From a virus, in the IMG/VR virus record IMGVR_UViG_3300027710_000002, positions 1 to 42,906 of that record: a stretch of 42,906 nucleotides of DNA, one strand, 5' to 3'. This document shows, in pieces, positions 8,068 through 42,708 of this stretch; the stretch's first letter is position 1; the number at the start of each line of letters is the position of its first letter. A program made the translations under genes and the position numbers. The notes beneath the pieces are model-generated. The model worked only from the letters and a program-made list of their open reading frames with translations, was not told where the DNA came from and searched no databases.

Positions 8068-8877
8068 TTAAAATTTTAATAAGGCTTGTTCCAGAGTCAT
8101 TATTTCGTCCACCAAGCCAATTTTTAGGGCTTCTGTAGCGTTGTATGTCTTTCCTTTGAATACATGACCGTCATCCGAGAGTTTGTCGCCATAATTGGCT
8201 TTGATGGTCGATATAAATTCGTCTGTAATTATTTTAAGGCGCTCTTTGTAAGGCGCTTCGTTACCGCTGATCAATTCTTTGATGTCGGCATTTTTTTCTG
8301 TGGATTGTGGAGCATAGATTTCATAAATCTTTGCACCCCATTTTTCGAACATTGCTGAAAAGTCCTGAAATGATAAGTAAGTTCCAATAGAACCAATATG
8401 ACTTGCAAACGGACTGGCAATTTTCATGTTACATGCTGAAGCGATCCATTCAGCAGCTGAACATTGCATTTCTGATGTAAATGCAATTGTAGGTTTCTTC
8501 ATATTTTTGATGAAGTCTGCAAACTCAGCAGTTCCGGACACTTGACCGCCTCCGGAGTCGATATTAAATAGAACTCCGGAGATGTTTGGATTAGCATCAA
8601 TATTTCTGAGAATATTTTGCATGTCCAAGGTTCCGAGAGTATTGTATGTTGAATACTTTACAATCGGACCGATAATATTAAAAACAACTGGATATTTGCT
8701 CGCACCATTAGAATTGGCGCTCATCTGAAGATCAAGGGACTTAATAAATTTTTCCTGCACTTTTTCTGCAGAAACAAGAGTATTGGTTTTGAAGCCGATA
8801 ATCATTTCAGTTAAAAATGACATTAGATAATTTTTATCTATTGCCAGAGGAGTATTAAAAAAATTAAGTCCGTTCAT
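8068..8877 (-). CDS. Head maturation protease, S49 (SppA/ClpP-like) family
   Basis: Motif NIDSGGGQVSG and overall S49-like layout, upstream of the scaffold and capsid genes. Confidence 0.75.
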   Translation of the reverse strand: MNGLNFFNTPLAIDKNYLMSFLTEMIIGFKTNTLVSAEKVQEKFIKSLDLQMSANSNGASKYPVVFNIIGPIVKYSTYNTLGTLDMQNILRNIDANPNISGVLFNIDSGGGQVSGTAEFADFIKNMKKPTIAFTSEMQCSAAEWIASACNMKIASPFASHIGSIGTYLSFQDFSAMFEKWGAKIYEIYAPQSTEKNADIKELISGNEAPYKERLKIITDEFISTIKANYGDKLSDDGHVFKGKTYNATEALKIGLVDEIMTLEQALLKF

Positions 8878-15570: not shown

Positions 15571-15572
15571 AA

Positions 15573-15770: not shown

Positions 15771-15790
15771 ATTTAAATTTTAAAATGTTT

Positions 15791-16934: not shown

Positions 16935-16953
16935 TTTTTTAAAATTACTTGTT

Positions 16954-20127: not shown

Positions 20128-20151
20128 AACGGAGACTAATAAGTCTCCGTT
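20128..20151. terminator. Bidirectional hairpin between the convergent integrase and tail genes
   Basis: 10-bp stem AACGGAGACT/AGTCTCCGTT with a 4-nt loop. Includes the stop codon of the 615-aa ORF. Confidence 0.6.
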
Positions 20152-21983: not shown

Positions 21984-24015
21984 CTAAAATTTTAAATTCT
22001 AGTTCCATACATAAAGTATTATCTTCACCTTTAAGTTCATTTTTTTTACCAATTGGAAAGGCTTTGAAACGCTTTCCTTCAGAATAAATAAAACAAAGTC
22101 TACTAGATAAAATATCATCTATTAATGGAATTTCTTCTTTTAAGATCCAACCCGTATTCACAGTCAAAGGTCTTGATCTATCTGTGTCAAACTTTTCTTC
22201 AGAAAATTCTTTTGATTCGCCAACAAGATGCTCGAGTTCTGTAGCAGGATTAAGATATCCTGATGCACTAAACCATTCGAAAACTAAATTTTGATTCTCC
22301 CATTCAATATGAATAGTATTTTCTGGATCTGGCAGAGGAATGAAAGTCATTTCATTCGCTTCAATTAAATTTGTTTTTAGTATATCTTTAAATTCACTTC
22401 TGAGAAAAGTAAATTGATCAACTGTCAATTTTGTTAGATTGACAGGTTTTGGAGTTTTATATTGTTGAAACAGCTTATTAATGACATCTTTATCACTCAT
22501 TCTATCTACATTAAGTTTTAAAATACTGTCTGAATAAGTAGATCGAATATTATGATCAGTAAACAGAGGGAAAAACTTTGGTTTCCTGCCTGGAGCAAAA
22601 TAAATATTATTGACAGTAAATGTAGAAATAAGCTGATCCTGATCATTTAATTCTTCAAAGCTCATATTGACTAGAGCTAAGTCATACTGATAAATCGGAT
22701 CCAAAGAATTAACTAAATTTTTAGCCTTAATAAAAAAATCGTTTATTTCATCCCCTGGATAGAACTCAGTTTTTCCCTTAAAAAAAGGAATTGTATATTT
22801 TTGATTTTCTTGATAAGTTTCACCAAAGCCTTTCATATACATATCCAAAGTCATTCTTACATAAGTTGAATTTGCAACTGTTTTAGTAATTGTAACTTTA
22901 TTTTTATCTTTAGCAAAATAGTACAAAGAGCCCGTAAAGTCATGTTTTATAGACTCAATCACGCTAATACTTACAAGCACTTTTTTTATTACCATTCCAG
23001 ATGTTATTAAAACTTCCCCGGAATAGTTACCAATTGAAAGCGTTGATGCATTTACAGTTGTTATTTTCAAATTTCCATTTAAAATAACTGCTGATTCAAT
23101 GAAAGAAGGAATTGTATCTACTGAAATAACTAAATTGTTAGGATTTGAAATATCAACTTCGAAAGATTTTACTTCAGATAAATTTTTTTGTAGCGAGAAA
23201 TTTAATGATGTTGGATTTATATAAAACTGTGTTGCATCATTAATTACCGTTAGATTCACGGCTACATTTTTTGTATATGAACCAATCTGTAAAGTCACAG
23301 TTGCGGAGTAATTACCAACTGCTTTACTCTGAAGAACTGAGTTATTCTGAAAAGTTAAATGTCGCTGAGAATTCACAGACTCCTGCAGTATATTTAAAAA
23401 AGGCTCAGAAGCTGTTACGATTAATGGATCATTTACAAAAGCAATAATTTTTAAATCTCCAGACAATGATTGATCTGCTTTATTATAGTTTAAATTATAA
23501 AGAGTTTTATCCGTTGGAATACCTGTACCTGCCTGAACTGTAATTGATATTTCAGTATAAAATGACTCTAAAAAATTTTCCAGGTTATTTTCTAAACCAT
23601 AAGCTTCAATTACCACAGGAATTACATGAGTCCCTGCAGATAAATTATCCAAGTTCTGGAAATTGCAAAATATCCTTTCAGTAATTAAATTTGTTTGGTT
23701 AAATGTGTCACCTACTAGTTTGTTAGAAGAAATACTTGCGAAATCGATAGAATTTATATTTTTCTTAAGTTTAAAACGAAAATCCGTGTAATTACTATAA
23801 ACAAACTCTAGCTCGGGAAATGTGATATCCTGAAATAATTGTCCCGGTGCAACTGTACCCATTTGCCATACTTTATTTAATTGAGAAGGAGTAATTTTCC
23901 AGTCCCTTATGGGAACCTCTGTTTGCGCAGAAATAAGACTACACAATGAGCCTCCACCTTGACCTGGAGGACAAACGGTATAATATTGAGTTACAGTTTT
24001 GGTTCTGATTGGCAT
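21970..24015 (-). CDS. Distal tail / baseplate protein candidate (681 aa)
   Basis: Downstream of the tape measure gene, beta-rich and repetitive. Assigned on position. Confidence 0.4.
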   Translation of the reverse strand: MPIRTKTVTQYYTVCPPGQGGGSLCSLISAQTEVPIRDWKITPSQLNKVWQMGTVAPGQLFQDITFPELEFVYSNYTDFRFKLKKNINSIDFASISSNKLVGDTFNQTNLITERIFCNFQNLDNLSAGTHVIPVVIEAYGLENNLENFLESFYTEISITVQAGTGIPTDKTLYNLNYNKADQSLSGDLKIIAFVNDPLIVTASEPFLNILQESVNSQRHLTFQNNSVLQSKAVGNYSATVTLQIGSYTKNVAVNLTVINDATQFYINPTSLNFSLQKNLSEVKSFEVDISNPNNLVISVDTIPSFIESAVILNGNLKITTVNASTLSIGNYSGEVLITSGMVIKKVLVSISVIESIKHDFTGSLYYFAKDKNKVTITKTVANSTYVRMTLDMYMKGFGETYQENQKYTIPFFKGKTEFYPGDEINDFFIKAKNLVNSLDPIYQYDLALVNMSFEELNDQDQLISTFTVNNIYFAPGRKPKFFPLFTDHNIRSTYSDSILKLNVDRMSDKDVINKLFQQYKTPKPVNLTKLTVDQFTFLRSEFKDILKTNLIEANEMTFIPLPDPENTIHIEWENQNLVFEWFSASGYLNPATELEHLVGESKEFSEEKFDTDRSRPLTVNTGWILKEEIPLIDDILSSRLCFIYSEGKRFKAFPIGKKNELKGEDNTLCMELEFKILDDER

Positions 24016-24389
24016 AAGTATGGGATTTTGTTTTTGTATAATTTTTTAGTTTTGTCGGTATTCCTTTCCATATAGTTCCAAATTTCAATAGCAAAATTTT
24101 GGAGGTAAATAATAAGTCTCTCGGGTCGTTCCTCTATGGTTTTAGCCATCGGTAATAAAATATCCTTATTTCTGATGAGTTTTTGAAAACCAAGCATTGA
24201 GATTATAAAATCTATATCTTTAATTTTGTATTCCTCAGTAAGATCACCATTAAGTATTTTTGAAACTGATCCTACCAGATAGAGATTTTCGCCAGTGATT
24301 TCTTTGACATTTTCAACCAGGATATCACAATACTCGTTTAATACCGGCACTTCAAAAATCTCGAGTTTTTTAAAGTTATTTTCGTGCAT
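23991..24389 (-). CDS. Minimal nucleotidyltransferase-fold protein (132 aa)
   Basis: The hGS-x16-DxD pattern LVGSVS...IKDIDFI plus a later acidic strand AIEIW. Overlaps both neighbours (14 and 25 nt). Confidence 0.5.
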   Translation of the reverse strand: MHENNFKKLEIFEVPVLNEYCDILVENVKEITGENLYLVGSVSKILNGDLTEEYKIKDIDFIISMLGFQKLIRNKDILLPMAKTIEERPERLIIYLQNFAIEIWNYMERNTDKTKKLYKNKIPYLCQSEPKL

Positions 24390-27300
24390 TTCTACTTTCT
24401 ATTTGATCGCTTTTTTTAACAGCAGTTTTTATTAATTTTCCATTCTTTTCATTAGCGATCATGTAGGCGATAATTCCTTCATCATCTAATTTTTTAAGCA
24501 AAACCAAAAGTTCCTGAAGCACATTATTGTTTTGCATCATGTATTCTGAGTTTTGAGTATTAGGAGTGATGGAAACTGTATCAGTTGTTGTATTTTTTAC
24601 AAGTCCACCTTCAGCATAACCTTTATTATTACCTTGTCTGACGCTTTCCAAATAGTCAATTACTTTAGCATGTCGAGGATGTTCTACCATCCATTGTGGA
24701 GCAACCCATTCCTTAGCATGAACTACACCTGCAGGAACAGCTCCGGTTTCATCTGGAGAACCGAAGCCGGTTCCAGTGTGGCCACCTTTAAAAAAGCTCG
24801 GCTTATCAGGAAGAGGAGTACTCATTACTGTTCCTAACTGGATTGCTCCTAAAGTCCCGATTACAACAGCAGCTATTGTTCCTCCAATCGGACCAAGTTG
24901 ACTGTAAGCTTGCATAATTGCCAATGATGTACTTGCTACAATTTCAGCAACTTTGAGAGCTCTCTCAACTTTTGCTTGTTTGTATGATATTTCAGCTTTT
25001 TTATTCGCGGTTTCCGCCTCAATTAATTGAACTTTTTTATTATATTCAGTCTGACTAATAATACCTTCATTTAATTGTCTTAGAAGCTCTTTTTTCTTGT
25101 TTGAATTATCCTTCTCAAATTTTGACATTTCACGATTAGCAAGATTCTGCTGCAGTTGGGAAAAACTTTGAAAAGCGCTTGATAGAGCCTGTACAACCAT
25201 TTTTACAGCCTCAATTTTTCCTTTTGTTGTATCAAGATTTTTCCAAGCGGTTTCCCAATCTTTGGCAGAAAATCCTAGAATATCTACTTTTTCTTTTTCG
25301 GAATTATTCTCTTCAGTAACCTTCTTTTTATCAGCTTCATCGCCGCCCTTCATTGCCGATTTAACTGCAGTGATTCTGATATTTAATTCATCAAGATCTT
25401 TCTTTAGTTTTGCAGTAGCTTCTGAAGATAGTGAGGGATCATTAATAAGCTGATTTAGAAGTTTTTTTTGCTCATCCAGCATTTTCATCTGGGAATCTAA
25501 GTAAGCTCGGTCAGCATTTTCTCTAAGAGCCTTTTTAGCATCTTCTAACGTTGTTATGCTCTTTAATTCAAGTTCTGTAAGCTTAAGATAATGCATCTGA
25601 GATAACGCCTCTTTCGCCTGATCCATTGAAGAAATATTATTGATCATTTCTTCAGATGAATTCCTTTCAAGATCTATCTTTGACTGTAATTTTTCTACCT
25701 TTTTTTCAAAGCTTAAAGTCTCCCATTTTTCTTCTATGCGAAGCAGATTAAAGCCATGAGTTTGCCATATTTGATCTTCTATTTCCGCATTAATATTTAT
25801 TAGATTCTGCCTTTTTTTGTTGGTAGTATTTAATTCAGATATAGCGCTATCAAATATTTTTGTAGCTTCTGGTGATTTTGTTTCTTTTTTATCTCGCTGA
25901 AGCTTTTTGATTTCATCTTCAGATTTTTGAATTTGATTTTTGATTTCAGTGTTTTGTTGAGAAATTTCAGACTTTCTGTTTTCGTAATCTTGAAGTTCTA
26001 AATTCCACTCTTTCTCTTTACTTTCCTGAAGTATTTTGAATTCTTCGTCTTTTTTAGTTTTTTCGAGCTCTAAAAATTTTTTATCTGCTTCAGCTTTTGC
26101 TTCAAGCGATTTATTGTAAGCTTCACGAGCTTTTTCTAAATCATCATCTTTTTTCTTCTCAAGATTTTTATCTTTTTTCGCTTCAGGAACAACAATATTT
26201 TGAGGTACAATATTTCCAGTCGGAGTTTCAGCCGTTGATAATTTTACAATCTCATCACTTAGTTCCTTAGCATCATCGTTAAGACTTTGGATTGCCTCCA
26301 TTCTTTTTTCATAGACATATCCAAAACTTTCCATCATGCTTTTTGCATATTCATCACCACCTTTTCTACGCCATATTTCGAATTGCTTTCTCTGACTTTT
26401 ATCGAGTTTTTTTATTTCCGAAGGTGTTAAAAATGACATATTTCGATCAACCCAATTACCATTTGTTTTAACAAAATCTTTTATAGGAGTATCTTCTGTA
26501 TCAATAATTTTTTCTTGTATTTCATCAAGTTTTTTATTTAAAACCTTAATTCTCGAATTTCTAATTAATGCATCCGTATATGCTTTTATCGCGTTGGTAG
26601 CTTCTTGTGTTTTGATATTTTCAAGCGTCAAATTGCCTAAATATTCAGGAGAAAGGGCATTTAATTTTTTGATTGCGTTCGCTTTTACTTCCTTAGAATA
26701 ATTATCATTTCTAGCTATCTCAACTAAATTATTTAGTTCGTTTTTTTGAGAAATGATGCCTTTTTCAGATTCTTTGTTGATATCATTCAGCATTTTTTGT
26801 TTATCAGCTGCTTTATCAACCTCTTTTGAGAACATCGCGATGGCTACGACTGCTGCAGTAATAACCGCGACAAAAAGACCAATAAGATTAGATTTTGTTG
26901 CTATATTAAAAGCTCTCATAGCAATTGTAGCTCTAACAGTATTTCCCGTTACCAGAGCCTGAGCTGCAGCATATAAAAGTGATGCTGCTCTAGCTGTTGT
27001 GTCCCAAAATACTTTTGCTTTCTGAACTAAATTGTATATTAAAGTCTCACGAGTTACATTTTTAGTCGTCAAAACTAAAATTAAGAGAGCTGCGTTATAG
27101 CCAATTACAGCAGAAATAGCAACAATAAAAAGTTTGTAAAGAACTGATAATCGCTCTTTAAATATAATAATACCATCACCGGACTCGTCGGTCACACCAG
27201 TTAGCCAACCTACAGCTTGGATGAGACTTTCAAACTTATTGATTACGTTTGTTGAAGTGAACATATCACCGAACGCATTCTTGATTTTTTCAAGAATTGC

Positions 27301-28539
27301 CGGTGCATTATTATTTTTTTTATTGAATTCATCAGTTAAAGAGGTCATTTTATTCATCTCATCTCCGGCGGTCTCCATCGATTTTCTAAAGTCGTCAGTT
27401 CTATTAGCGGCAGCACCTATCACTTTTTGAACTTCCAATGAATTCAATTTTAAACTTTCGAAGATTTTAGAAGTCTCAGTTCCGGATACGCCTTTCATTC
27501 CGGCTGCAAATCGCAAGAAAAATTCTTCAGGTTTAGTGTTTAATAGTTTCGTAGCTTCAGAAACTGACATTTGCATTGAAATTGCAAAACCTTCAATATT
27601 TCCTCCAGCTGTAGTCAAAAAATTAGATACACCTGAAGAAGCGATTTGAGCATCAATACCTGATTCTTCGAAAGCAGCACCTAAACCTAAAACTTTATCA
27701 ATTGCAGGTCGTAGTGCTTCCGGTAAATTTCCTAATCTTAGTGTGAAATTTGCGATGTTTCCTTCGCTAGCGGTTCCCTGAGCAGCCAAAGTATTAAGAG
27801 CAGAACCAACCTTATTAATTGCGTCTGCGTACGTTAATTCCTTTGTTCCGTTGAATAGCCCCTTAATTTTACCAAGCTGATCGACTACACCCTCAAGACC
27901 ACCGTCGAAACTATCTCCTAAAGCGACATAAGCTTTGTCGACTTCCTGGACAAAATCTTTCATTTCCTCCAGAGGAACTCCCAAACGACCTCCAACTTCA
28001 GCAATTTTTAAACGCTCAAGCTTCGTTGTTCTGGTGTCCATCTCGTCAAATTGATTCCAAAGATTTTTTACCTGATCTGTAGACATCCCAGTAGTTTTTT
28101 CTACATCGGTCATTGCATCAGCTATTTTCAGAAGTTGATCTACAGTTTCTTTACCTTTTGAAATCATATTTTCAAAAAACATTGAAGCAGTATTCGCACT
28201 GAATACCTCTCTGAAGGTTTCACCAAAACTTAATAACCCATTACGAAATAAACCTAAAAAACCTCTTGATCTGTTAAGAGCGCCATCAAGATTATTGATT
28301 TCATTTCTTACTTCTGCAAAACGAGCTCTAGCTCTACTTAGTTGTTCTGCAGTCGCGTTAAATTCTCTAGTACCAACTGGAAGACGGCGAAGATCACGCT
28401 CTAAACTTCGAGTGATTCGCTGAACATTCTGAAATGTATTTTGAACTTGATTTCCGTTGATATATAGAACTCCGGTTGTGGAGATTGTGTTTCCTGCCAT
28501 CTTGCTGTAAGAATTTGATGCAAGATGTAACTGGAGCAT
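24376..28539 (-). CDS. Tail tape measure protein
   Basis: 1387 aa with long coiled-coil Lys/Glu-rich segments and hydrophobic helices in the middle and near the C-terminus. Confidence 0.85.
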   Translation of the reverse strand: MLQLHLASNSYSKMAGNTISTTGVLYINGNQVQNTFQNVQRITRSLERDLRRLPVGTREFNATAEQLSRARARFAEVRNEINNLDGALNRSRGFLGLFRNGLLSFGETFREVFSANTASMFFENMISKGKETVDQLLKIADAMTDVEKTTGMSTDQVKNLWNQFDEMDTRTTKLERLKIAEVGGRLGVPLEEMKDFVQEVDKAYVALGDSFDGGLEGVVDQLGKIKGLFNGTKELTYADAINKVGSALNTLAAQGTASEGNIANFTLRLGNLPEALRPAIDKVLGLGAAFEESGIDAQIASSGVSNFLTTAGGNIEGFAISMQMSVSEATKLLNTKPEEFFLRFAAGMKGVSGTETSKIFESLKLNSLEVQKVIGAAANRTDDFRKSMETAGDEMNKMTSLTDEFNKKNNNAPAILEKIKNAFGDMFTSTNVINKFESLIQAVGWLTGVTDESGDGIIIFKERLSVLYKLFIVAISAVIGYNAALLILVLTTKNVTRETLIYNLVQKAKVFWDTTARAASLLYAAAQALVTGNTVRATIAMRAFNIATKSNLIGLFVAVITAAVVAIAMFSKEVDKAADKQKMLNDINKESEKGIISQKNELNNLVEIARNDNYSKEVKANAIKKLNALSPEYLGNLTLENIKTQEATNAIKAYTDALIRNSRIKVLNKKLDEIQEKIIDTEDTPIKDFVKTNGNWVDRNMSFLTPSEIKKLDKSQRKQFEIWRRKGGDEYAKSMMESFGYVYEKRMEAIQSLNDDAKELSDEIVKLSTAETPTGNIVPQNIVVPEAKKDKNLEKKKDDDLEKAREAYNKSLEAKAEADKKFLELEKTKKDEEFKILQESKEKEWNLELQDYENRKSEISQQNTEIKNQIQKSEDEIKKLQRDKKETKSPEATKIFDSAISELNTTNKKRQNLININAEIEDQIWQTHGFNLLRIEEKWETLSFEKKVEKLQSKIDLERNSSEEMINNISSMDQAKEALSQMHYLKLTELELKSITTLEDAKKALRENADRAYLDSQMKMLDEQKKLLNQLINDPSLSSEATAKLKKDLDELNIRITAVKSAMKGGDEADKKKVTEENNSEKEKVDILGFSAKDWETAWKNLDTTKGKIEAVKMVVQALSSAFQSFSQLQQNLANREMSKFEKDNSNKKKELLRQLNEGIISQTEYNKKVQLIEAETANKKAEISYKQAKVERALKVAEIVASTSLAIMQAYSQLGPIGGTIAAVVIGTLGAIQLGTVMSTPLPDKPSFFKGGHTGTGFGSPDETGAVPAGVVHAKEWVAPQWMVEHPRHAKVIDYLESVRQGNNKGYAEGGLVKNTTTDTVSITPNTQNSEYMMQNNNVLQELLVLLKKLDDEGIIAYMIANEKNGKLIKTAVKKSDQIESRNARK

Positions 28540-30279: not shown

Positions 30280-30291
30280 CTGTTTTTAATT

Positions 30292-32704: not shown

Positions 32705-32734
32705 TAAAAAAAGTCCTGATAATTCAGGACTTTT
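32705..32734. terminator. Bidirectional intrinsic terminator
   Basis: 9-bp stem AAGTCCTGA/TCAGGACTT with a 4-nt loop, A6 upstream and T-run downstream. Confidence 0.7.
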
Positions 32735-32921
32735 GAGCTATAATATATCCTAAGTGGAAAAGGGTATTTGCACCATGCAATTCCCGTATTATTTTAATTT
32801 TTTTTTCTACAGAGCTCAAACTATTTGGCTTAACATTTAATAGTTTAAGTTTTTCAGAGATTTCTTTTTGGTTGAAACCTTTTTTTAAGTTCTCAATAAT
32901 AAAGTCATTTACATTTTCCAT
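32724..32921 (-). CDS. Small HTH protein (65 aa), candidate regulator
   Basis: LuxR/sigma-region-4-like segment FNQKEISEKLKLLNVKPNSLSSVEKK. Confidence 0.45.
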   Translation of the reverse strand: MENVNDFIIENLKKGFNQKEISEKLKLLNVKPNSLSSVEKKIKIIRELHGANTLFHLGYIIAQKS

Positions 32922-32984: not shown

Positions 32985-33548
32985 TTAAAATAAATCATCA
33001 TACTTTTTCAGAATTTTGGCGAGACCCTTTCCAATAATTTCTTTTTTATTTACAATATTTTCAACAGCTCCAGTTCCTGTGATGAAATCAACTTCAACCA
33101 AAACCGAAATTCCAGATCCAAGATTTAGAATTCCAATTCGGGAATGCTGAGAGTTATTTTCTGGCTTTACTCCACGATTTTTTATTCCTAAAGTTTGAGA
33201 TAAAAATTCATTAACCTCATTCGCCATTTTGTAAGAGCAAGAATTTTTGTCTGCAAAATCTTTTTTATTGACATAACATTCAACGCCACGCGTTGTATTA
33301 TTTACTGCAGCATTCAAATGAATATCAAAAATAACGGAGCCCGAAGCCGGTTTTATCCTAGTTTGATACTGTTTATTTGTTTCCCAGTCTTTATCTACAA
33401 TAATGTCTTTGTCCGCACTTTGATTAACGATAGAATCACGTATAATTCTAGTAATATCAGCTTCTTTGTAGCCATTAGATACAGCTCCCGGATCTTCATT
33501 ATTATGTCCTGCAGAAACGTACGTTCTTAACGGTGAAAATTGTATCAT
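32985..33548 (-). CDS. Endolysin, N-acetylmuramoyl-L-alanine amidase (Amidase_3 type)
   Basis: Motifs SAGHNNEDPGA, IFDIHLNA and VEVDFIT. Confidence 0.85.
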   Translation of the reverse strand: MIQFSPLRTYVSAGHNNEDPGAVSNGYKEADITRIIRDSIVNQSADKDIIVDKDWETNKQYQTRIKPASGSVIFDIHLNAAVNNTTRGVECYVNKKDFADKNSCSYKMANEVNEFLSQTLGIKNRGVKPENNSQHSRIGILNLGSGISVLVEVDFITGTGAVENIVNKKEIIGKGLAKILKKYDDLF

Positions 33549-33550
33549 TC

Positions 33551-33715
33551 TTATTTGTCAAAAATTGATTTTACAGCCCACATCTTTGCGGTTTCTAAAT
33601 TTGTGATAGCTACAGCTCTCGATCTTGGATCTAGATCAGTGTCATCATTCAGATCTTTCTTAAGCTCTTCGAATTTCCTTTCAAATTCAGCTTTTCTTTC
33701 TAATAGTGATTTCAT
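33551..33715 (-). CDS. Small ORF (54 aa) inside the lysis cassette, not in the supplied track
   Basis: My own translation is MKSLLERKAEFERKFEELKKDLNDDTDLDPRSRAVAITNLETAKMWAVKSIFDK. It fills the gap between the lipoprotein and amidase genes. Confidence 0.5.
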   Translation of the reverse strand: MKSLLERKAEFERKFEELKKDLNDDTDLDPRSRAVAITNLETAKMWAVKSIFDK

Positions 33716-33719
33716 TCTT

Positions 33720-34253
33720 TTATTGTTTGTTAATTATACTTAAATACCAATTACTTTTTTTTAACCAGTTCCAAAGCCACCGCAATATTTCCCGGATCAT
33801 AAACCCGGCAAATAAAATAGAATACCAGGGATAAGCATCTTTATGCTTATCAGAATATCTGGTAACTGATTTATAAGTAGTTTGTGATTTATAAGTTACA
33901 TGAGACCAATAGGTAGTAATGATATTGGTTTCAATTTTTCTTACAACTTCTTTCTTTTCCGATTTCTTTTCAAAATTTAGTTCCGCATTCGTAGTTCCGT
34001 GAAAGAGCTGCCCATCTGAAGTAAAATTGAAAAATGAATTTTGCCCATTTACCGGTTTAACAGAAATATTGTATCCATCATTAACGATCCGGATTGAAGC
34101 ATTTTCAAAAGTCCGGATGTTCGAATTTCCTCCGGAAGATTCTTTAAGATCTGTTTTTTCAGTATCTTCAGAAGTTGAAGTCAATTTGTTTTTTTTCATT
34201 GATCCACATGAGATCAGTAAAAAACTAAGCAGCGCTGTTAAGATCGTTTTCAT
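33720..34253 (-). CDS. Unimolecular-spanin-like lipoprotein (177 aa)
   Basis: N-terminal lipobox LLISC plus a C-terminal hydrophobic helix YPWYSILFAGFMIREILRWLWNWL. Located between the holin and endolysin genes. Confidence 0.5.
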   Translation of the reverse strand: MKTILTALLSFLLISCGSMKKNKLTSTSEDTEKTDLKESSGGNSNIRTFENASIRIVNDGYNISVKPVNGQNSFFNFTSDGQLFHGTTNAELNFEKKSEKKEVVRKIETNIITTYWSHVTYKSQTTYKSVTRYSDKHKDAYPWYSILFAGFMIREILRWLWNWLKKSNWYLSIINKQ

Positions 34254-34791
34254 CGTTTAATTTTTCGATTTTTTTAATTTTCATGTTTAAAATTTTCGTC
34301 AGCGTAACAGCTGCGGGGATTTCCATTTTTGCCATATTTTCAGCGATGCTCAAAAGAATAAAGATTCCAATTGTGAGGACAAAAGTGTAGTGTATTGCTG
34401 CTACAGTTCCGACAGCCATGTCTTTTATCCATTCTGGAGTGATCGCTGAAGTTTCCAGTCCTCTCTTAAAAGTATTGGTAAGGAAGATCACGGAGAACAT
34501 CACAAATGGTTTAAAGATTCCTCTGAAGAACCGGTCACTTTCAAACTTTCCATCGAGATAGACAAGATTTGCGTACAGACCTACTAGCAGATCGATCAAA
34601 CTTCCGGCTGCAAAGAATACCCACAGCAACATCGAAATGCCACTGTGAGTTTCAATAAATCCCGAGAAGATTCCGAAAGTAAGTGAGCTTGCAAAAATAC
34701 TTCCGAATAATGGATGGTACTTTCCAAAAAAATCTTCAATATTCAGGAATCCCATTAGTTGAAGAATATATTTTATTGTTATGTTGTTCAT
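34225..34791 (-). CDS. Holin (phage_holin_4_1-like)
   Basis: Four hydrophobic helices and the C-terminal signature SIAENMAKMEIP. Confidence 0.65.
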   Translation of the reverse strand: MNNITIKYILQLMGFLNIEDFFGKYHPLFGSIFASSLTFGIFSGFIETHSGISMLLWVFFAAGSLIDLLVGLYANLVYLDGKFESDRFFRGIFKPFVMFSVIFLTNTFKRGLETSAITPEWIKDMAVGTVAAIHYTFVLTIGIFILLSIAENMAKMEIPAAVTLTKILNMKIKKIEKLNDENDLNSAA

Positions 34792-34797
34792 TTTAAA

Positions 34798-37584
34798 TTA
34801 TAATTTCCAAATAGAATCTAAATAAGTGATTCTTTGTGTTAATATCTCCATAATTCTGTCAGTATTGTGCAAACCTGTGTTTGTATAAGGAAAGGCATTG
34901 ACTCCCCAAAGTGTCAATTGATTTTTATAGTTTGTTTCCCCAATAGTTCCAGGAATCTCACTATATATCGAATAGAGATTGTTTAGATCGATAATTCCAA
35001 TATTCCTTAACTCTGTGTACCGTGTGCGTATACGTGAAAGTAACGCAGGATAAATCTTTGTGGGAAAAAAAGTACCTCGCCAATTCAATGCGCCGTTACC
35101 TCCATAGGCGCCGTTACCTAGACCCGCCGTGTTATCTAAATCCGTCACGCCAAGGCTCCATTTGCTTCCCCAGAAGAATAAGTTTAAATTGTTCATATAG
35201 TAGTCCCAATTACTCACGACCTGATTTAATATGATAACATCTACCCAATTCTCTATGTTAATTATGTTAGGGGCTGTTGCCTCGAAGTTTATAGACCCAT
35301 CATTAATACCTGTGCACCAATTAAAGAAATTGTTAATGTGACTCATTACAGTAGCATCGTTTATCACGCCGTTTTCCTGATAGCCTGAAATTTTTGGGCT
35401 TTTTAGCTCCCAATATTGAGGGTCAAAGCCTGTGTGTATTGAATACTCAACACTATTGGAATTAGCGAGATAGATATTTGTTTTTAGAGCGTCATTCATT
35501 CGGAAATTTCCGTTTTCTCTCCTTTGTCGCCATATATATAAGCCAAAGAAACTACCATTTCTGTTTAATTGGATTGGAAAACCTCTTAACGTCATGTTTG
35601 CGTCCTCGCCAAAATTAGACGTGTTGGAATCGCTTGTGGCATTGTATTGTGGGAAATCTGAAACTAAAGATTTCGGGAAAGGTCGAGATTTGAAAATCTG
35701 ACTTAACAAATTAGCCGCAGAAATATCTCTCGATACAATTACCGCATCACTTGAACCGTAGCCTTTTAAATGAAAGCTACTATCTAAATTCCAATCACCT
35801 ATTTTTATTTTAAGTGTCGAACCAGCATCATTTATAAATTTAACCGCATAATTTAGCTTATTAGCATTTACACTGCTACTGCCTTGTATCTTGCATTCGA
35901 TATTACATTTAAAAATAAGTACCGAGCCGTTATACATTTCTAAAACCATATCGGTTTTTGCGCGTGCAGGCGATATATCTGTCGGTAAAGTACCGATTAA
36001 ATTTACTACTGGTAAAAAATCTTTCGGTTTTTCAAGATAAATTACGGTCTGATTACCTATAGGCTTAACAGTACTTACGCTATTGATAGCGCTAAGTACA
36101 GAATCTTCCGATACTCCTACTTCTTTAATTAATTGAACTGAAGCGGTTGAGTTTTCAAAATTTTCAAAATTCGACCACCCTATTAAGGCTGTTTTTGAGT
36201 TAGGCGGCAGATCAAAAAATTCAGACGTGAAGGCGTGAGGTGCAGACGTGTGCTCGTTAGCTAATAAACTCACATAACTATTATCTGTTTTTTTAATTAA
36301 AATTGACGAATACAGGGAAGGATCTGCCGCGACTGCTCGAGCCGCCATATACTTTAATTTATCATACCCGACTACCGATATTTCAGAATATCTCGATTCT
36401 GTTCCAGCCTGTATAGTCCCATCGTTTTTTATAAATCCAAATTGAGTATTAGGTAAATTAACATTCTCAACGTCGTAACCTTTCGCAAAGCTATAAAGAA
36501 CATTATTCAAAGTCTCTAAGGATTGCAAATCAGCCGTTACTACTCTTTTAAATACATTTACTTTTCCGTAAACCTCCATCGAGATATTACCGTTTATTTC
36601 TGTGCCGGAGATATTGTAGTATCTCCCTCCCGTACCATCTTTGAAAAAAAGCGTAGCCGTAGAGTTTAAAGTGCTAAAACCTATTAGATCATTTGGCAAC
36701 ATATCAAAATCAACATCTATATCATTCCAACCTGCAACTAAAGATGTACTAATTATGTTTGATACCGCGTCATTTCGCATATAAGTAAACACTCCAGTAC
36801 CAGCACTTTGCGCTTTAAACCTAATTTTTAAAAGTTTTTCTAATTTTTCGGCTTTATATGTAAATACACTTACGCCGTCACCTGATGGGATGAATTGCGA
36901 AAAGTCAATACCTGTAAGGTCGTCAGAAAGTATATCCGTGCCAGTTTGAGGATATACTTCAGCTTTGTTATTAAATTCATCTTCACTAAAGTCTGTGCCG
37001 CCAATTTTGACCCATTTGTCACTTACGCCGGGTACATCGGTTGAAGTAGCCGTTTGACCATCGGTGACAATCCAGTGAATGTTATTGTCAATGCATTGTG
37101 TTCCCTCCAACGCAGGAAATAGTAAATCTTCAAAGAATGGTATATTTCCATCAGAGCCATTTTTCACTTCGAAAGTAGTTGATAGAGATCCATCAGTAAA
37201 GCTAATTGTATAAGTATCTATTAATCCTGCAGATGAAGTTTTTTGTATACTGTCAATTGATTTGAACGGAAACGAAATTTCAGATTTTTCCCAGTTAATT
37301 CCATCATACGACAAAATATTCAAGTTTTTAGGTTCGAAAATAAAACCTCCATTATTAGTATATTCACCAGCAGAAGCAATAAACCATCTACCTATTCCAG
37401 GAGTAACGGAGATTGTATCATTAGGATTTACCACTCCTCCATAGGATGAAGTAAGCTTCGTGTCGTCAGGAATAATATTAGCAATTGATGTCAAAATCAA
37501 ATTCATGACTTGACCGGTAATTTCTTGCACGCCATTTGTAGTTATATACTCGTTAATAGCTGCAATAAGTTGTTGTTTATCCAT
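34798..37584 (-). CDS. Large virion protein (928 aa) with a CotH-kinase-like C-terminal domain (about aa 515-928, nt 34798..36042)
   Basis: CotH-like blocks LPVVNL, KIQGSSSVNANKLNYAVKF, NRNGSFFGLYIW, SNWDYYMNNLNLFFW and VTDLDNTAG. The N-terminus resembles Bacteroidota phage fibre anchors. Confidence 0.65.
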   Translation of the reverse strand: MDKQQLIAAINEYITTNGVQEITGQVMNLILTSIANIIPDDTKLTSSYGGVVNPNDTISVTPGIGRWFIASAGEYTNNGGFIFEPKNLNILSYDGINWEKSEISFPFKSIDSIQKTSSAGLIDTYTISFTDGSLSTTFEVKNGSDGNIPFFEDLLFPALEGTQCIDNNIHWIVTDGQTATSTDVPGVSDKWVKIGGTDFSEDEFNNKAEVYPQTGTDILSDDLTGIDFSQFIPSGDGVSVFTYKAEKLEKLLKIRFKAQSAGTGVFTYMRNDAVSNIISTSLVAGWNDIDVDFDMLPNDLIGFSTLNSTATLFFKDGTGGRYYNISGTEINGNISMEVYGKVNVFKRVVTADLQSLETLNNVLYSFAKGYDVENVNLPNTQFGFIKNDGTIQAGTESRYSEISVVGYDKLKYMAARAVAADPSLYSSILIKKTDNSYVSLLANEHTSAPHAFTSEFFDLPPNSKTALIGWSNFENFENSTASVQLIKEVGVSEDSVLSAINSVSTVKPIGNQTVIYLEKPKDFLPVVNLIGTLPTDISPARAKTDMVLEMYNGSVLIFKCNIECKIQGSSSVNANKLNYAVKFINDAGSTLKIKIGDWNLDSSFHLKGYGSSDAVIVSRDISAANLLSQIFKSRPFPKSLVSDFPQYNATSDSNTSNFGEDANMTLRGFPIQLNRNGSFFGLYIWRQRRENGNFRMNDALKTNIYLANSNSVEYSIHTGFDPQYWELKSPKISGYQENGVINDATVMSHINNFFNWCTGINDGSINFEATAPNIINIENWVDVIILNQVVSNWDYYMNNLNLFFWGSKWSLGVTDLDNTAGLGNGAYGGNGALNWRGTFFPTKIYPALLSRIRTRYTELRNIGIIDLNNLYSIYSEIPGTIGETNYKNQLTLWGVNAFPYTNTGLHNTDRIMEILTQRITYLDSIWKL

Positions 37585-37586
37585 TT

Positions 37587-38171
37587 TTAAGGTGAGAGTT
37601 TATTTTTAAAAAAATCGTTGTTAAAATCGTTGTTGAAATCTCCAGGCTGAGCTAAATGATTAATTGATGAATTGTACAAAAAGACCGGTGAATTGCAATT
37701 TATACCAATAGCAGCTCCGGAAATATCTGCATACTTTTTTCCTGTACCTGTCTCAGATGTATCTATAAAAGCTCTATTGCGTCTGTGACCAATTTGCCAG
37801 TTCTGGCCAGATGTATCTTGAATAAAAAATACAAAAGGAATATTTTTTCCTCTTTCAAGAAATCCTAGAATTGCTGGTAAAAAACCTAATATATATATCG
37901 AAAGATTTGTTTTCGTCTTTTTTCGACCTGCATTTCCTGCGATCACAGCTTTTAATTCATTTTCGTCTATCAAAATATCTATGTAACTAAGCTTCCTGTT
38001 TTTTCGCATCAGAATCTCATCTTTTATAATTATTTCTGATTCAAAACTTCCTGAAGGAATAGGAAGTGGAGTAGTAAAAAAGAATTCTTCCGGAGCATAA
38101 AATAATTTACATTTTACTCCAGAATTGTATTCGCGTAAATACGAATATTTTATGTCTTGAAAGTTAACCAT
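37587..38171 (-). CDS. Virion structural protein candidate, paralogue of 5670..6248
   Basis: Shared IDENELK / GFxxRxKNxP / DTSGQNW / KKY blocks. Confidence 0.55.
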   Translation of the reverse strand: MVNFQDIKYSYLREYNSGVKCKLFYAPEEFFFTTPLPIPSGSFESEIIIKDEILMRKNRKLSYIDILIDENELKAVIAGNAGRKKTKTNLSIYILGFLPAILGFLERGKNIPFVFFIQDTSGQNWQIGHRRNRAFIDTSETGTGKKYADISGAAIGINCNSPVFLYNSSINHLAQPGDFNNDFNNDFFKNKLSP

Positions 38172-38216: not shown

Positions 38217-39107
38217 TTATGTTAAATAAATTCCTGAAGATTTTGCCTGAATTTTACGATCTGCTATCGGTCCAGAATAACATGGAAATTCGTCAATATG
38301 ATTTTTTATGTAATCGGTGATCACTTTTACAGTTGAATCTCCAAGCTTTAAAAATTGTTTTCCGGACATCGCTTTCTCATCTAAGCTCAGAACCTGGGAT
38401 TTTTGCCATGGTAATTCCTCGTATTGTATTGCTACAGCATTTTGAAGAAAAACGAAATTAGGCAGTAATGAGGCATAGTAAAGTGAATAATAAACGTTCG
38501 CTTGTTTTAAAACTTTGTATAAATTAGGTTTTGTTTTAATCTGAGCTAAACAATCTGGCTGAATTTTATCTAAAATGTTTAGTGCATAGGCTTGTTCTAA
38601 AAAACTCTGCAGTAATGAAAAAACTTTTGGCGAATTTTTTATAGAATAAATATTTTCAAATTCATTGGGAGTTTTAATATCGCCAGAAACATTTTCAAAA
38701 AAAGGAATCCTCTGTTTTAACGCTTCTAAAAACGAAAGTTTAGTGATTGCTTCAGAAAATAATTTATCGGCAAATTTCAGCAACGACAAGCCCAAATCCC
38801 GAACGTCCCACCATGGTGCAGACTTTGTTTTATCTTCATTAATTAGTTGAACACCATAATTGGTGATATGAACTTTAATTTTTGGTATTGAAAAAACGAA
38901 AGAGTAGTGTGTAGCTGCTTTCGTAAGTAATCTGAAAATTTCTTTTTCCATTTCTAACTCAGATTCTTTTAAATCCAAATAAACATCAATTGGGATAATT
39001 TCAAATATTTCTCCAAATCCAAGTTCTTGATCAACGAGATCCCAATCAAAATTTTGTGGTAAAATAAAATAATTTTGAATCTCATCTTTTGAAATATAAT
39101 GTTCCAT
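38217..39107 (-). CDS. Hypothetical head/connector protein (296 aa)
   Basis: Follows the portal candidate. The ATG is preceded by copy B of the conserved 33-nt element. Confidence 0.5.
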   Translation of the reverse strand: MEHYISKDEIQNYFILPQNFDWDLVDQELGFGEIFEIIPIDVYLDLKESELEMEKEIFRLLTKAATHYSFVFSIPKIKVHITNYGVQLINEDKTKSAPWWDVRDLGLSLLKFADKLFSEAITKLSFLEALKQRIPFFENVSGDIKTPNEFENIYSIKNSPKVFSLLQSFLEQAYALNILDKIQPDCLAQIKTKPNLYKVLKQANVYYSLYYASLLPNFVFLQNAVAIQYEELPWQKSQVLSLDEKAMSGKQFLKLGDSTVKVITDYIKNHIDEFPCYSGPIADRKIQAKSSGIYLT

Positions 39108-39140: not shown

Positions 39141-40472
39141 TTAATTAACTACTTTTTCTTGTCCGTTTTTATTTTTATCCAATGTGGTGAGATTGATGTT
39201 AGGAAATTTTCCAAAAACAGTAGGATCCCATGAGTTCCAAAACTTAATGTTTTCAAAAATCTGAAGCGTTCTGATTTGTTTGATTGGAAGTTTTGCGCAA
39301 AGAATTGTCCAGGCTTCACGTTTATCGGATCCGGAACCGGATAATGTCTTTCCTCCGAATGCTCCACCCGTGATAAGACACGGATCAACACCCATTGCTG
39401 TTAGAAGTTCATAGTTCGCTGCCGAACTGTCAAGAAGAAAATCTCCATTACCCTGAGGCTGCTTAATCTCATCGATCTGAATACCTTTAATCTCTTTTCC
39501 GTTTTCATCCCGAAAGAATGGAGAAATGATTGATTTTCCACCGCCTTTAGAACCTTTCAATTCAGAATCAATTAAGTCAACAAGTTCTTGACGTTTTTTT
39601 TGTTTTTCATCGGCGGAAAAAGCGTCCCAGTCTTCCTGATAAATGTGTTTAAAGTAATCGTCTGCAACATGAATCAGATATTTTACACTGAGTTGCTGCT
39701 CAAACATTGCTTTTTTAAAGGCAGGAATCGCCAGAACTACATCAACCCATCCATTTTTAAATGAAGCGTGCCATCCAACAGACGGATATGATTTTTCAAT
39801 TAAAAGAGTGTCGATAACAGGAATTGTAAATCTGACAATTCCTGTTAGTTTACAAAAAGTTTTGATTTCATCGATTGGAATATTTGCTCCAAAGCATGGA
39901 ATTACTGCAGTATTTTCTGCCTTGTAATTTCCCCAGTCAGTATTAACACCGATATTATTCATTACCCCATTATTGTCAGGAACCTGAAAACGAACTTCAG
40001 CAGCTTTTAATCTTCGTACTGAAATAATCTTATCTCCGTTAGGCGATAACAAATACTCCGGAAAAGCTATTCTAAACGTTTCATAATCTGTGACAATTTC
40101 AGAGTTAAATATGTCAAATTTTGTACGGTAATAAAAAGCGGAAATCTCTGGAAAAGAGCTCACTAATCTTTCTTTAAAAATTATTGCCTCCTCTGTTTCC
40201 TGACCTTGATACAATCTAAAGCCAGTGCCAAAGTGAGCTGCTGTCAAAACTTCAAGACCACCTACTGCAACGCCGGTCATTTTTAATTTTGCAGCGAACT
40301 CTTGCGGATACAAATTATTATCACCCCAGGGCAACCATTGATTATCAATAAGGCTTTCCGTATTGGTGATTTTAAGATTTGAATGTTGCGGTTCGCCTTT
40401 TACTTTATTAAAAAATATTGCCGTCTGATTAGAGCGCCCTCCAACGGAATAAATTCCCTGAGAAATTTCCAT
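39141..40472 (-). CDS. Portal protein candidate
   Basis: 443 aa, second gene downstream of terL. Assigned on size and position only. Confidence 0.55.
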   Translation of the reverse strand: MEISQGIYSVGGRSNQTAIFFNKVKGEPQHSNLKITNTESLIDNQWLPWGDNNLYPQEFAAKLKMTGVAVGGLEVLTAAHFGTGFRLYQGQETEEAIIFKERLVSSFPEISAFYYRTKFDIFNSEIVTDYETFRIAFPEYLLSPNGDKIISVRRLKAAEVRFQVPDNNGVMNNIGVNTDWGNYKAENTAVIPCFGANIPIDEIKTFCKLTGIVRFTIPVIDTLLIEKSYPSVGWHASFKNGWVDVVLAIPAFKKAMFEQQLSVKYLIHVADDYFKHIYQEDWDAFSADEKQKKRQELVDLIDSELKGSKGGGKSIISPFFRDENGKEIKGIQIDEIKQPQGNGDFLLDSSAANYELLTAMGVDPCLITGGAFGGKTLSGSGSDKREAWTILCAKLPIKQIRTLQIFENIKFWNSWDPTVFGKFPNINLTTLDKNKNGQEKVVN

Positions 40473-41145: not shown

Positions 41146-42708
41146 TTATTTTAGTATTAGGTTGGTAACAGGGAATGATGAATGTCTACGAAGGTCAATC
41201 AAATGCCAGAACTGCCAGAATAAACAGTAGTCAAGTGTATCACTGAAGTGAGTTGCATGTTCCTGAAGAGTAGTGGTGCTTCGCTCAGAGCCTTTATCTT
41301 TTTCAAATGCATCATTACCTTTCAGAGGTGCATTCTCCATTGAGATAATAAGGTTAGGACAGTTATCACTATTGATTCTTACAGATGGCAGCATCACATT
41401 TGTTTCAGATAAGATCGCATTGATAAGCTTATACTTGTCAGCATGAGCTGGGTTGTTTTTGTTTGGTGTTTTATTAATTACTTTCCATCCGGCCTTTCGT
41501 AGCTTATTCATAACATCCTCGGCCAATGTGGTCTTGGAGTTGGCCTCCTTCTTATTTCCATACTTATCGTAGTACATGTGGATTTCGTTACAGCTAGACT
41601 TATGATGTTCATAGTAGTCAATAAAGTCTTGCACTAACTCATCCAGGATATCCGGATTCTTCCGGAAGAATTCTTTGATGAAGTTGATCCGGTTCATAGA
41701 CTTAAGATACTGCGATACAGTAAGACAGTTAATCTTTCCTCCAAAGTCTAAGTTCACCTGCAATGGTTGACCACGGACTAGATCGTCATCATATCTTGAG
41801 CTAGGCTTGAATGTTTCAGTTAATTCCAGACCAACTAACTTGATATTATATTTGTAATTATAATAATGAATAGTCGGCTTCAGCTGAGCATAAAATCCAT
41901 CCTGCACACCAATCGGATCTATATTAAGAATCTCGGCTTTAAACAATGTTTTAGATAAAGCTTCTTTCTCCATATCATCAATCCAACCATCTTTCAAGTT
42001 CTGAGCATTGACATAAGCATTAGCTTTGATAAACAAATGTTTTTTCAGATGAACCGGAATATTGTTTCTGCATTCTTCCAGATGAAGTTTCTCTCTATGA
42101 TGGATCCACTCACCCCTTTTTGTCATTGGAACAGACGTTACAAATATTTGCGCGTGTAACATCGGTCTGTTTTCGAATATAGCCTTCTTTGCTCTGTTTG
42201 TAGTGATAACGTTATTGTAGAGACGCTCATAAGTTAGTAGCGCGGCTTCATCACCGATTACCCAATATGCATTGATACCACGCCCTGAATCTTTGTTGTC
42301 CAGTGATACCATAACTGCAATTGTACCATTGCTGAAGTGGATGACATTTCCCCATGAGTCTGGAGCCTGGAAGGGCATCTCGAATCCTAAGTCTTTACCA
42401 CATCGGCCTACAACGTAATCAATACCTTCGTACAGACCAAACATCTCCATTCCTTCTTTGGTAGATGGAAGAGTTCTTGTCTTGATCTGCACAAAGGTTT
42501 CACCCACAATTACGCCGGTTGAGCGCGGCAACCATTTTACTGCAGTCTTGATAGCATCTCCTAAAATTGTAGACTTTCCGGTTCCCCTGGCCGCCTTGAC
42601 CGTGATGTTTGGAATCTTGTAAGTGTTGATAGCAAGATCAACAGCTCCCTGCATTAAATTAAGTTCAATCTCCCGGATTGGAAGATTGTATTTTGAAAAA
42701 TTACTCAT
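41146..42708 (-). CDS. terL: Terminase large subunit
   Basis: Walker A AARGTGKST and Walker B-like WVIGDEAA. 520 aa, with the start overlapping the terS stop. Confidence 0.85.
   Translation of the reverse strand: MSNFSKYNLPIREIELNLMQGAVDLAINTYKIPNITVKAARGTGKSTILGDAIKTAVKWLPRSTGVIVGETFVQIKTRTLPSTKEGMEMFGLYEGIDYVVGRCGKDLGFEMPFQAPDSWGNVIHFSNGTIAVMVSLDNKDSGRGINAYWVIGDEAALLTYERLYNNVITTNRAKKAIFENRPMLHAQIFVTSVPMTKRGEWIHHREKLHLEECRNNIPVHLKKHLFIKANAYVNAQNLKDGWIDDMEKEALSKTLFKAEILNIDPIGVQDGFYAQLKPTIHYYNYKYNIKLVGLELTETFKPSSRYDDDLVRGQPLQVNLDFGGKINCLTVSQYLKSMNRINFIKEFFRKNPDILDELVQDFIDYYEHHKSSCNEIHMYYDKYGNKKEANSKTTLAEDVMNKLRKAGWKVINKTPNKNNPAHADKYKLINAILSETNVMLPSVRINSDNCPNLIISMENAPLKGNDAFEKDKGSERSTTTLQEHATHFSDTLDYCLFWQFWHLIDLRRHSSFPVTNLILK

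Follow-up and report, generated by a model that had tools for sequence, protein, structure and literature searches.

A CotH-family kinase-fold domain at the C-terminus of a putative exchangeable fibre protein of a Chryseobacterium phage

CotH domains in large phage proteins have been noted before (PMC8008677, PMC5758913, bioRxiv 10.1101/2020.04.01.020958, 10.1101/2024.11.15.621889), and the phage CotH proteins are unstudied experimentally (PMC8008677). They include targets of diversity-generating retroelements (DGRs): proteins of about 2000 amino acids (aa) or longer with CotH regions, which form category f1 of Wu et al. 2018 (PMC5758913), PC_00012 of Roux et al. (bioRxiv 10.1101/2020.04.01.020958), and Bacteroides domain group 3 of Macadangdang et al. 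(bioRxiv 10.1101/2024.11.15.621889). Here we describe a gene for a 928-aa protein that ends in a CotH domain. It is located at 34798..37584 on the minus strand of the virus record IMGVR_UViG_3300027710_000002, of which positions 1 to 42,906 were analysed as one stretch (the window). A first-pass annotation of the window had described the protein as a fibre-like virion component for which no characterised example was at hand. It is correct that none has been characterised; however, phage CotH proteins are already present in the literature, in PHROGs (phrog_27151), and in BFVD, and the domain is less new than was implied. BFVD contains about 15 viral proteins with the CotH fold, some of them named 'CotH kinase protein', such as A0A8S5SI55 of Siphoviridae sp. 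ctHAs12. Other annotated phage CotH proteins are phrog_27151, gp353 of Bacillus phage G, the CotH protein of 'Acinetobacter phage MD-2021a', and the proteins of the crAss-like phages cr124_1 and cr52_1, which are labelled 'spore coat protein-like' and 'internalin-like'.

We propose, with moderate confidence, that the 928-aa protein is an exchangeable receptor-binding protein of the fibre or tailspike type, that it belongs to a temperate Chryseobacterium siphophage related to the Helgolandviridae, and that its CotH tip would engage the host surface. Phage CotH proteins have no known function, although about 840 clusters share this domain, mostly at the C-terminus among those examined. To this known and uncharacterised class the window adds comparative evidence of a host-range module that can be swapped and whose active site is conserved.

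The CotH domain and its active site

The CotH kinase-fold domain comprises aa 505-928, the extreme C-terminus of the protein (34801..36072, minus strand). The open reading frame (ORF) of 928 aa exists as the first-pass annotation had described it, and the span 34798-36042 assigned there to the domain corresponds to aa 515-928. All of the motif blocks on which the assignment was based are present in the translation (LPVVNL, KIQGSSS..KLNYAVKF, NRNGSFFGLYIW, SNWDYYMNNLNLFFW, and VTDLDNTAG), and the attribution of the C-terminal ~420 aa to the CotH family was borne out both by a Pfam hidden Markov model match above threshold and by structural comparison, with 5JDA/5JD9 as the best match. The Pfam profile PF08757 (CotH) matches aa 665-860 with an E-value of 2.7e-8 and 34.1 bits (cut-off 23.8); the match is partial and covers profile positions 65-264 of 322. 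The PHROGs family phrog_27151, which is of unknown function, matches aa 510-927 (E 1e-44). Searches of the PDB with a single sequence, either the whole protein or the C-terminal domain, did not find a CotH entry. A profile made from a 20-sequence alignment of relatives, which were obtained by an exhaustive search with aa 505-928, gave Bacillus cereus CotH (5jd9_A) as its only PDB sequence match (E 0.02). The alignment spans exactly the NWD..NN and DLD blocks, pairing '..NWDsngnN..' with 'NFDGFVHN' and 'yDlDltlG' with 'WDYDATWG'.

An AlphaFold2 model of aa 505-928, built on the alignment of 20 relatives, has a mean predicted local distance difference test score (pLDDT) of 85 and a predicted template modelling score (pTM) of 0.88. 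The best solved structures identified with this model by Foldseek are 5JDA/5JD9 (E 6e-13, probability 1.0, template modelling score (TM-score) 0.56/0.65), followed far behind by PI3-kinases (E>=3e-4), and the top match in BFVD has an E-value of 8.5e-21 and a TM-score of 0.75. The segment of aa ~505-928 is a CotH-family domain, and the match is well beyond chance.

The residues expected of a CotH active site are present. The catalytic loop D794-Y-Y-M-N-N799 (D-x4-N; 35188..35205, minus strand) aligns to 'D-G-F-V-H-N' of B. cereus CotH, and the metal-binding motif D815-L-D817 (35134..35142, minus strand) aligns to 'D-Y-D'. The conserved elements of the N-lobe are Q567-G568 in the IQG loop, K576, and H605-x-K607 (35764..35886, minus strand). 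Conservation was counted in 136 representatives, each from a different 50%-identity cluster. K607, D794, N799, and D815 are each invariant (136/136), G568 is kept in 135/136 of the representatives, D817 in 133/136, Q567 in 129/136, and K576 in 126/136. The first-pass annotation had stated that the acidic residues are retained, and D794, D815, and D817 are indeed in place together with N799; substitution of the catalytic aspartates was looked for in the alignment and was not found. The aspartates of B. cereus CotH that align to D794 and D815 are 23 residues apart, which equals the spacing of D228 and D251 in Bacillus subtilis CotH, where the changes D228Q and D251A give catalytically dead protein (PMC7821199). 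From this spacing we infer that D794/D815 are the equivalents of D228/D251. K607 is a candidate nucleotide-binding lysine. The pattern of conservation fits an enzyme rather than a degenerate pseudokinase, with catalysis itself being predicted, and the strict invariance argues that the site matters and that the active site of the domain is under selection.

The same invariance bears on the question of whether the CotH fold serves as a non-catalytic adhesin for a host receptor, as has been proposed for Mucorales CotH3 binding GRP78. Such a role would agree with the extracellular CotH adhesins and invasins described in fungi (PMC9973265), with the lack of ATP outside the cell, and with the position of the domain in an exchangeable receptor-binding slot, for which short lectin-like, non-enzymatic alternatives exist in two of the compared loci (L008 and L010). 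However, binding surfaces normally vary, whereas K607, D794, N799, and D815 do not vary among 136 divergent representatives, and pseudokinases usually lose such residues. We regard a purely adhesive function as unlikely. If the cleft is a ligand pocket, the adhesin explanation merges with the proposed role of the CotH tip.

The domain belongs to a large subfamily. The exhaustive search with aa 505-928 identified 838 clusters (50% identity) at E<=1e-3; word-indexed searches with the C-terminal domain or a profile returned very few proteins. Among relatives with a full domain, 118 of 134 have the domain end within 15 aa of the protein C-terminus. None of the 70 N-termini of relatives read by eye resembles a signal peptide, and several contain the motif 'ITGxxLNxxL', as does the N-terminus of the 928-aa protein. 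Standalone or short CotH genes follow the genes for portal and DUF6712 proteins in two phage contigs (L017 and L023). In L022 a CotH gene lies beside a gene for a 'host specificity protein', and the CotH gene of 'Acinetobacter phage MD-2021a' adjoins genes for an NlpC/P60 tail peptidase and a 'host specificity protein'. The possibility that the window encodes a secreted bacterial CotH protein was rejected, since the protein lacks a signal peptide and carries a phage anchor.

The region of the domain had also been described as visibly more GC-rich than its surroundings, which did not hold. Its GC content of 36.3%, against a genome-wide 33.9%, is matched or exceeded in 18% of windows of the same size. 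The idea of a GC-rich island acquired from a foreign source was rejected, since the GC content lies within one standard deviation of the genome mean. The 12-nucleotide (nt) duplication GCGCCGTTACCT mentioned in the same context is real; the copies start at 35090 and 35108, 18 nt apart (35090-35119), and encode GNGA-YG-GNGA directly after the DLD motif. The pLDDT of the model dips at this position (mean of 69 for the 10-residue block at domain residues 321-330). The GCGCCGTTACCT duplication is probably the result of replication slippage and carries no functional weight.

A conserved anchor with exchangeable modules

The borders of the modules of the 928-aa protein come from a homology search and pairwise BLAST. 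Proteins that share parts of it (P numbers) and loci of other phages (L numbers) were compared with the window. Four of the loci (L005, L006, L007, and L018) have nearly the same backbone as the window: the large terminase subunit (TerL) is 93-99% identical, the portal 93-94%, the DUF6712 protein 89-95%, and the holin 91-93%, and p166 is 93-95% identical in the three that reach it. In protein comparison, none of the four has detectable similarity to the window in the fibre past aa ~105. The nucleotide homology with L005, L006, and L007 ends at 37268-37276 and restarts at 34780-34798. The replaced block, 34799-37275, is the fibre gene without its first ~103-105 codons.

The part that is retained is the N-terminal anchor, aa 1-106 (37267..37584, minus strand), which is made up of two helices and, after them, a small beta domain. 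Among sibling phages the anchor retains 48-78% identity, the proteins being wholly different past it; it is common to P0003-P0010 at 56-75% identity, with entirely different sequence afterwards. Contig look-ups placed P0006, P0007, P0008, and P0010 in phages with the gene order of the window. A search of cultured phages with the anchor (tblastn) gave no match, and a scan of the genome collection with the anchor alignment found nothing. The first-pass annotation had remarked that the N-terminus looks like a phage fibre or virion anchor, and the comparison of siblings agrees with it: this segment behaves as the conserved anchor of an exchangeable fibre or tailspike-type protein. As judged from aligned sequences, the 928-aa protein is a conserved anchor with exchangeable C-terminal modules that are joined at sharp recombination breakpoints.

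The alternatives that occupy the slot in the relatives include C-termini resembling Lipase_GDSL/SGNH esterases (P0008 and P0009, with weaker matches in L007 and L020) and a Glyco_hydro_43 C-terminus (P0004, and below threshold in P0006), besides the short lectin-like forms mentioned above; the remaining C-termini have no recognisable family. Genes for Acyl_transf_3 O-acyltransferases adjoin the slot in L002 (12372-13472) and L003 (13506-14543). The esterase- and glycosidase-like modules together with the O-acyltransferase neighbours suggest a polysaccharide receptor. In L018, a prophage of Chryseobacterium sp. BGARF1, the slot encodes a 751-aa protein (15414-17669) whose N-terminus is different throughout and whose C-terminal domain weakly resembles SdrD_B/CarboxypepD_reg, indicating that this backbone circulates with two or more types of anchor. 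The comparison is a clean one, with near-identical genomes in which a single anchor carries a CotH, esterase-like, GH43-like, or unassigned module, and such an arrangement argues that the kinase fold serves as a host-range, surface-acting module.

The CotH module itself moves between phages, as judged from its distribution. It is 80% identical in protein to the corresponding part of P0002, and 70% identical in DNA over 34778-36742. P0002 is the only protein colinear with the 928-aa protein over aa 46-928, at 63% identity overall; it has a different N-terminus and is also encoded just upstream of a lysis cassette. The locus encoding P0002 (L001) has no detectable similarity to the window in terminase, portal, and holin. 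A second CotH domain, 25% identical, is joined to the same anchor in P0005 (L004).

These observations also bear on a different interpretation, in which the protein is an intracellular kinase that acts late in infection on structural proteins of the phage or on host proteins, where ATP is available, and in which the link to a virion anchor is secondary. Its action would parallel that of CotH, whose phosphorylation of spore-coat proteins drives assembly. The complete and invariant catalytic residues would suit such an enzyme, as would the location of the gene in a late operon beside the lysis genes. The CotH enzymes characterised so far are all Ser/Thr protein kinases of structural coat proteins (PMC7821199), and the takeover of hosts by means of phage-encoded protein kinases is known from other phages (PMC8008677). 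However, the esterase- and glycosidase-like modules that the siblings carry on the same anchor are the signature of a host-range determinant, and the divergent CotH versions (25% and 80% identity) on the same or different anchors resemble the diversification of receptor-binding domains. An intracellular kinase is in our estimation distinctly unlikely.

Between the anchor and the CotH domain, the protein contains three further segments. The first, aa 108-146 (37147..37263, minus strand), is a single copy of a repeat unit, 'KTSxxGLxDTYTIxFTDG..FxVxNG'. This unit of ~37 aa is tandemly repeated many times in the unrelated long fibre-like proteins P0011-P0014, some of which also have collagen-like GXY runs. 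The second is a beta-sandwich or jelly-roll module, aa 192-350 (36535..37011, minus strand), 43% identical to the GH43-like slot protein P0006; roughly aa 220-340 are modelled confidently, with 10-residue block means of pLDDT between 81 and 96. The third, aa 351-504 (36073..36534, minus strand), is a beta region of low confidence accompanied by a predicted long helix (344-367), and among the compared loci it is common to P0002 only. The monomer model of aa 1-504 contains the two N-terminal helices, confident beta-sandwiches at about aa 50-100 and 220-340, and the helix 344-367. The list of its Foldseek matches includes Cry toxin domains, a phi812 baseplate chain, PBSX XepA, and glycosidases bearing carbohydrate-binding modules. 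The modelled folds are compatible with a fibre shaft and do not prove one.

The anchor appears to have a partner, the 194-aa protein p194, the gene of which (37587..38171, minus strand) directly precedes that of the 928-aa protein. In loci that have the anchor, p194 is 57-89% identical to that of the window (79-89% in four loci with a near-identical backbone), and where the anchor has been replaced, in L018 and L019, the identity falls to 44% and 39%. In L018 the genes flanking p194 stay ~90% identical, and the nucleotide homology breaks off at 38170, where the p194 gene ends. The co-variation of p194 with the type of anchor suggests that the two behave as an interacting pair. A paralogue of p194, a 192-aa ORF in the head/neck module (5670..6248; 25% identity, E 1e-18), together with the co-variation points to a structural docking protein. 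The protein p194 is probably a docking or adaptor protein for the fibre, and may be a duplicated structural protein. Searches with p194 of Pfam, NCBIfam, and PDB profiles gave nothing informative, and among cultured phages it has only a weak match, in Leef_1.

Some loci carry small genes near the slot. In L020, an ORF on the opposite strand (19172-19939) has a lipoprotein-type N-terminus and appears SGNH-like by eye. A 54-aa gene with an Acb2/Tad1 hairpin (anti-CBASS/Thoeris type) lies near the fibre and lysis genes of L005 (13230-13394). At the position of the sibling accessory genes, the window has only two small ORFs, 32480-32704 (plus strand) and 32724-32921 (minus strand).

Genome position and proposed role

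The window is the genome of a phage in closed circular form with a length of 42,779 bp, as indicated by an exact terminal direct repeat of 127 bp (window 1-127 and 42780-42906). Its TerL has 93% identity to a gene in a prophage of Chryseobacterium sp. BGARF1 and 74% to one in a prophage of Chryseobacterium sp. NFX27. The 928-aa gene starts 2 nt past the stop of p194 and ends 6 nt ahead of the start of the holin gene, and the two short gaps indicate that it belongs to a tightly packed late operon. The first-pass annotation had placed the gene between head-completion genes and the holin, and the flanks are consistent with this: the genes for the portal, the DUF6712 adaptor, and p194 lie on one side, and that for the holin on the other. 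The 296-aa DUF6712 protein (38217..39107, minus strand) belongs to a family that includes gp07 of phage Leef_1, annotated as a head-to-tail adaptor; its scan against NCBIfam gave nothing informative. The lysis cassette directly downstream of the 928-aa gene (32985..34791, minus strand) is formed by a holin (PF05105, 34225..34791), a 177-aa lipoprotein (33720..34253), and an Amidase_3 endolysin (32985..33548), all on the minus strand.

The closest cultured phage is Polaribacter phage Leef_1 (TerL 41% identical), a siphovirus of the Helgolandviridae (PMC8776804). The genes of Leef_1 are arranged in the order portal gp06, 'adaptor' gp07, a 979-aa 'tail spike protein' gp08, lysis genes, neck protein, tape-measure protein, BACON-domain protein, and integrase, and gp07 carries DUF6712 (E 1.6e-19). 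The window and Leef_1 share an unusual layout with the protease and capsid genes upstream of the terminase, and in both the lysis cassette is located amid structural genes. The common layout indicates that the 928-aa gene stands in the tailspike position of this group of phages.

The position beside the lysis genes could also be explained if the product was not a virion protein, and was instead an accessory factor secreted or released by lysis, or a protein of lysogenic conversion or superinfection exclusion. The gene adjoins those of the holin, lipoprotein, and endolysin in the window, is lysis-adjacent in L001 too, and is far from the tape-measure and tail-tip genes. However, the N-terminus of the 928-aa protein has, from its sequence, neither a signal peptide nor a transmembrane segment. 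The conserved anchor with a swappable C-terminus, the co-varying structural paralogue p194, the repeat unit common to long fibre-like proteins, and the position of an annotated tail spike gene of a cultured siphovirus speak against an accessory factor as well, and we consider it highly improbable.

The receptor-binding reading that we prefer, and that the first-pass annotation had raised as a possibility together with action on the envelope, can be stated as a sequence of steps. The first ~105 residues would anchor the protein to the virion, probably via the co-varying p194, and a string of beta-sandwich modules would form the shaft. The distal, host-facing module would be the CotH-family domain with its atypical kinase fold and its complete, conserved active site. 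At adsorption, this domain would most likely contact a component of the host surface through the metal- and phosphate-binding catalytic cleft, either by catalysis, with transfer or cleavage of a phosphoryl group on a surface glycan or polymer, or with the cleft as a binding pocket for a phosphorylated ligand. A catalytic reaction at the surface has only about even odds, because there is no ATP outside the cell. Virion incorporation, the attachment point, action at the cell surface, the chemistry, and the substrate are all inferred parts of the proposal.

Several points weigh against the proposed role. The presence of the protein in virions is deduced by comparing sequences, and the label 'tail spike' in Leef_1 is an annotation and not a demonstrated function. 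The 928-aa gene lies away from the tail-tip genes (20136..24389), and the tail tip, neck, and capsid are all candidate attachment sites. Confidence in the monomer model of aa 1-504 is moderate (pLDDT 70, pTM 0.38), and the Foldseek matches of this model are generic beta-sandwich or lectin-like structures with TM-scores of 0.1-0.2. The GH43 and some of the SGNH assignments of the slot alternatives are below Pfam thresholds. Known CotH enzymes have their protein substrates inside the mother cell, and a kinase reaction at the surface, carried out by an extracellular enzyme with no obvious supply of ATP, would be chemically awkward.

If the proposed role is correct, the repertoire of receptor-binding enzymes of phages is wider than recognised, and the Chryseobacterium prophage offers a tractable system for studying extracellular CotH proteins. 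A broader proposal is that CotH-tipped fibres constitute a large unrecognised class of enzymatic receptor-binding proteins that perform phosphoryl chemistry on the host envelope at adsorption. Their targets might be capsule, lipopolysaccharide, or teichoic-acid-like polymers, on which phosphate or phosphodiester groups would be added, removed, or cleaved, with a donor that is possibly not ATP. This would be a third chemistry beside those of glycan depolymerases and deacetylases; we consider the generalisation doubtful. If the domain is only an adhesin or an intracellular kinase, the result is an ordinary annotation.

Nearly all of the genes in the window are on the minus strand, with the integrase on the plus strand. 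The first product in the order of transcription is a primase/helicase-like protein of 987 aa (minus strand). An S49/ClpP-type prohead protease (8068..8877, minus strand) and a 338-aa putative capsid protein (6600..7616, minus strand) are followed by small structural ORFs, including the 192-aa paralogue of p194, in the region 4576-9880; the capsid protein gave nothing informative in Pfam and NCBIfam. Just upstream of the terminase, three genes of the modification type are consecutive (window 915-4399): a ParB-like N6/N4 DNA methyltransferase (3056-4399), a C5 cytosine methyltransferase (1940-2983), and an Amidoligase_2 protein (915-1838). At the nucleotide level, L005, L006, and L018 lack the region of the C5 methylase (~1948-3128). 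A 193-aa ORF resembling the small terminase subunit crosses the junction of the circular genome (unit 503 down to 42701, minus strand) and overlaps the start of TerL (41146..42708, minus strand). After TerL, the order is the portal (39141..40472, minus strand), the DUF6712 protein, p194, the 928-aa gene, the lysis cassette, small structural ORFs, the tape-measure protein (24376..28539, minus strand), and three tail-tip ORFs on the minus strand. Between the structural ORFs and the tape-measure region, a 181-aa protein (30292-30837) matches DUF4468, which has a TBP-like fold, and phrog_4002. The nucleotide alignment with L006 is broken at 30289-30840, and the DUF4468 gene may be a variable insert.

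Comparison with known CotH proteins and tailspikes

The phage domain and Bacillus CotH (PF08757; 5JD9/5JDA) share the atypical protein-kinase-like fold, the catalytic D-x4-N, and the metal-binding D-x-D. In contrast, the identity between the two is only ~14%, and the phage domain is fused C-terminally to a 500-aa phage fibre scaffold. Bacillus CotH works in the cytoplasm of the mother cell, whereas the phage domain is probably exposed on the virion.

Like the 928-aa protein, the DGR-associated proteins with CotH and C-type-lectin regions are encoded by phages, among them phages of Bacteroidota and of the gut, and carry CotH in a large protein with a presumed role in structure or host interaction. 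In that class, CotH is followed by carbohydrate-binding or leucine-rich-repeat modules and then by a C-type lectin region rewritten by the DGR, whereas the protein described here has 928 aa and the CotH domain itself is C-terminal, reaching the last residue, 928. Pfam, the alignment, and the model revealed no domain downstream of CotH, including a C-type lectin variable region. A second copy of any part of the gene, as expected of a template repeat, was not found in the 42.8-kb genome (blastn, word size 7), and the gene was rejected as a DGR target for lack of this repeat. No reverse transcriptase was present among the ORFs of the window scanned against PHROGs and Pfam, a scan that left out some small ORFs. 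The annotated phage CotH proteins resemble the 928-aa protein in having the same domain in large phage proteins (tblastn identity 27.5%), and differ in their N-terminal scaffolds; their sequence identity to it is low (13-27%), and none has a published function.

A parallel in architecture is provided by modular tailspikes and fibres with enzymatic tips, such as SGNH esterases and glycosidase or lyase depolymerases, which likewise combine a conserved anchor with exchanged distal modules and sharp breakpoints. The tip of the 928-aa protein differs from these in having a kinase fold rather than that of a hydrolase, lyase, or lectin, and the gene is located beside the portal and adaptor genes and the lysis cassette instead of the tail-tip genes. 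We know of no characterised receptor-binding protein that uses a kinase fold.

Outside phages, loci for the exopolysaccharide Pel have CotH genes and a polyphosphate polymerase as neighbours (PMC7112168), and the secreted CotH-FN3 protein SIR_1594 affects Pel production and Pel-dependent aggregation (PMC12345266). The Pel-linked proteins are a precedent for an extracellular CotH domain tied to polysaccharide and phosphate metabolism. The question of what CotH does outside the cell is shared by the phage protein, the secreted bacterial CotH proteins encoded next to Pel loci, and the CotH invasins of fungi.

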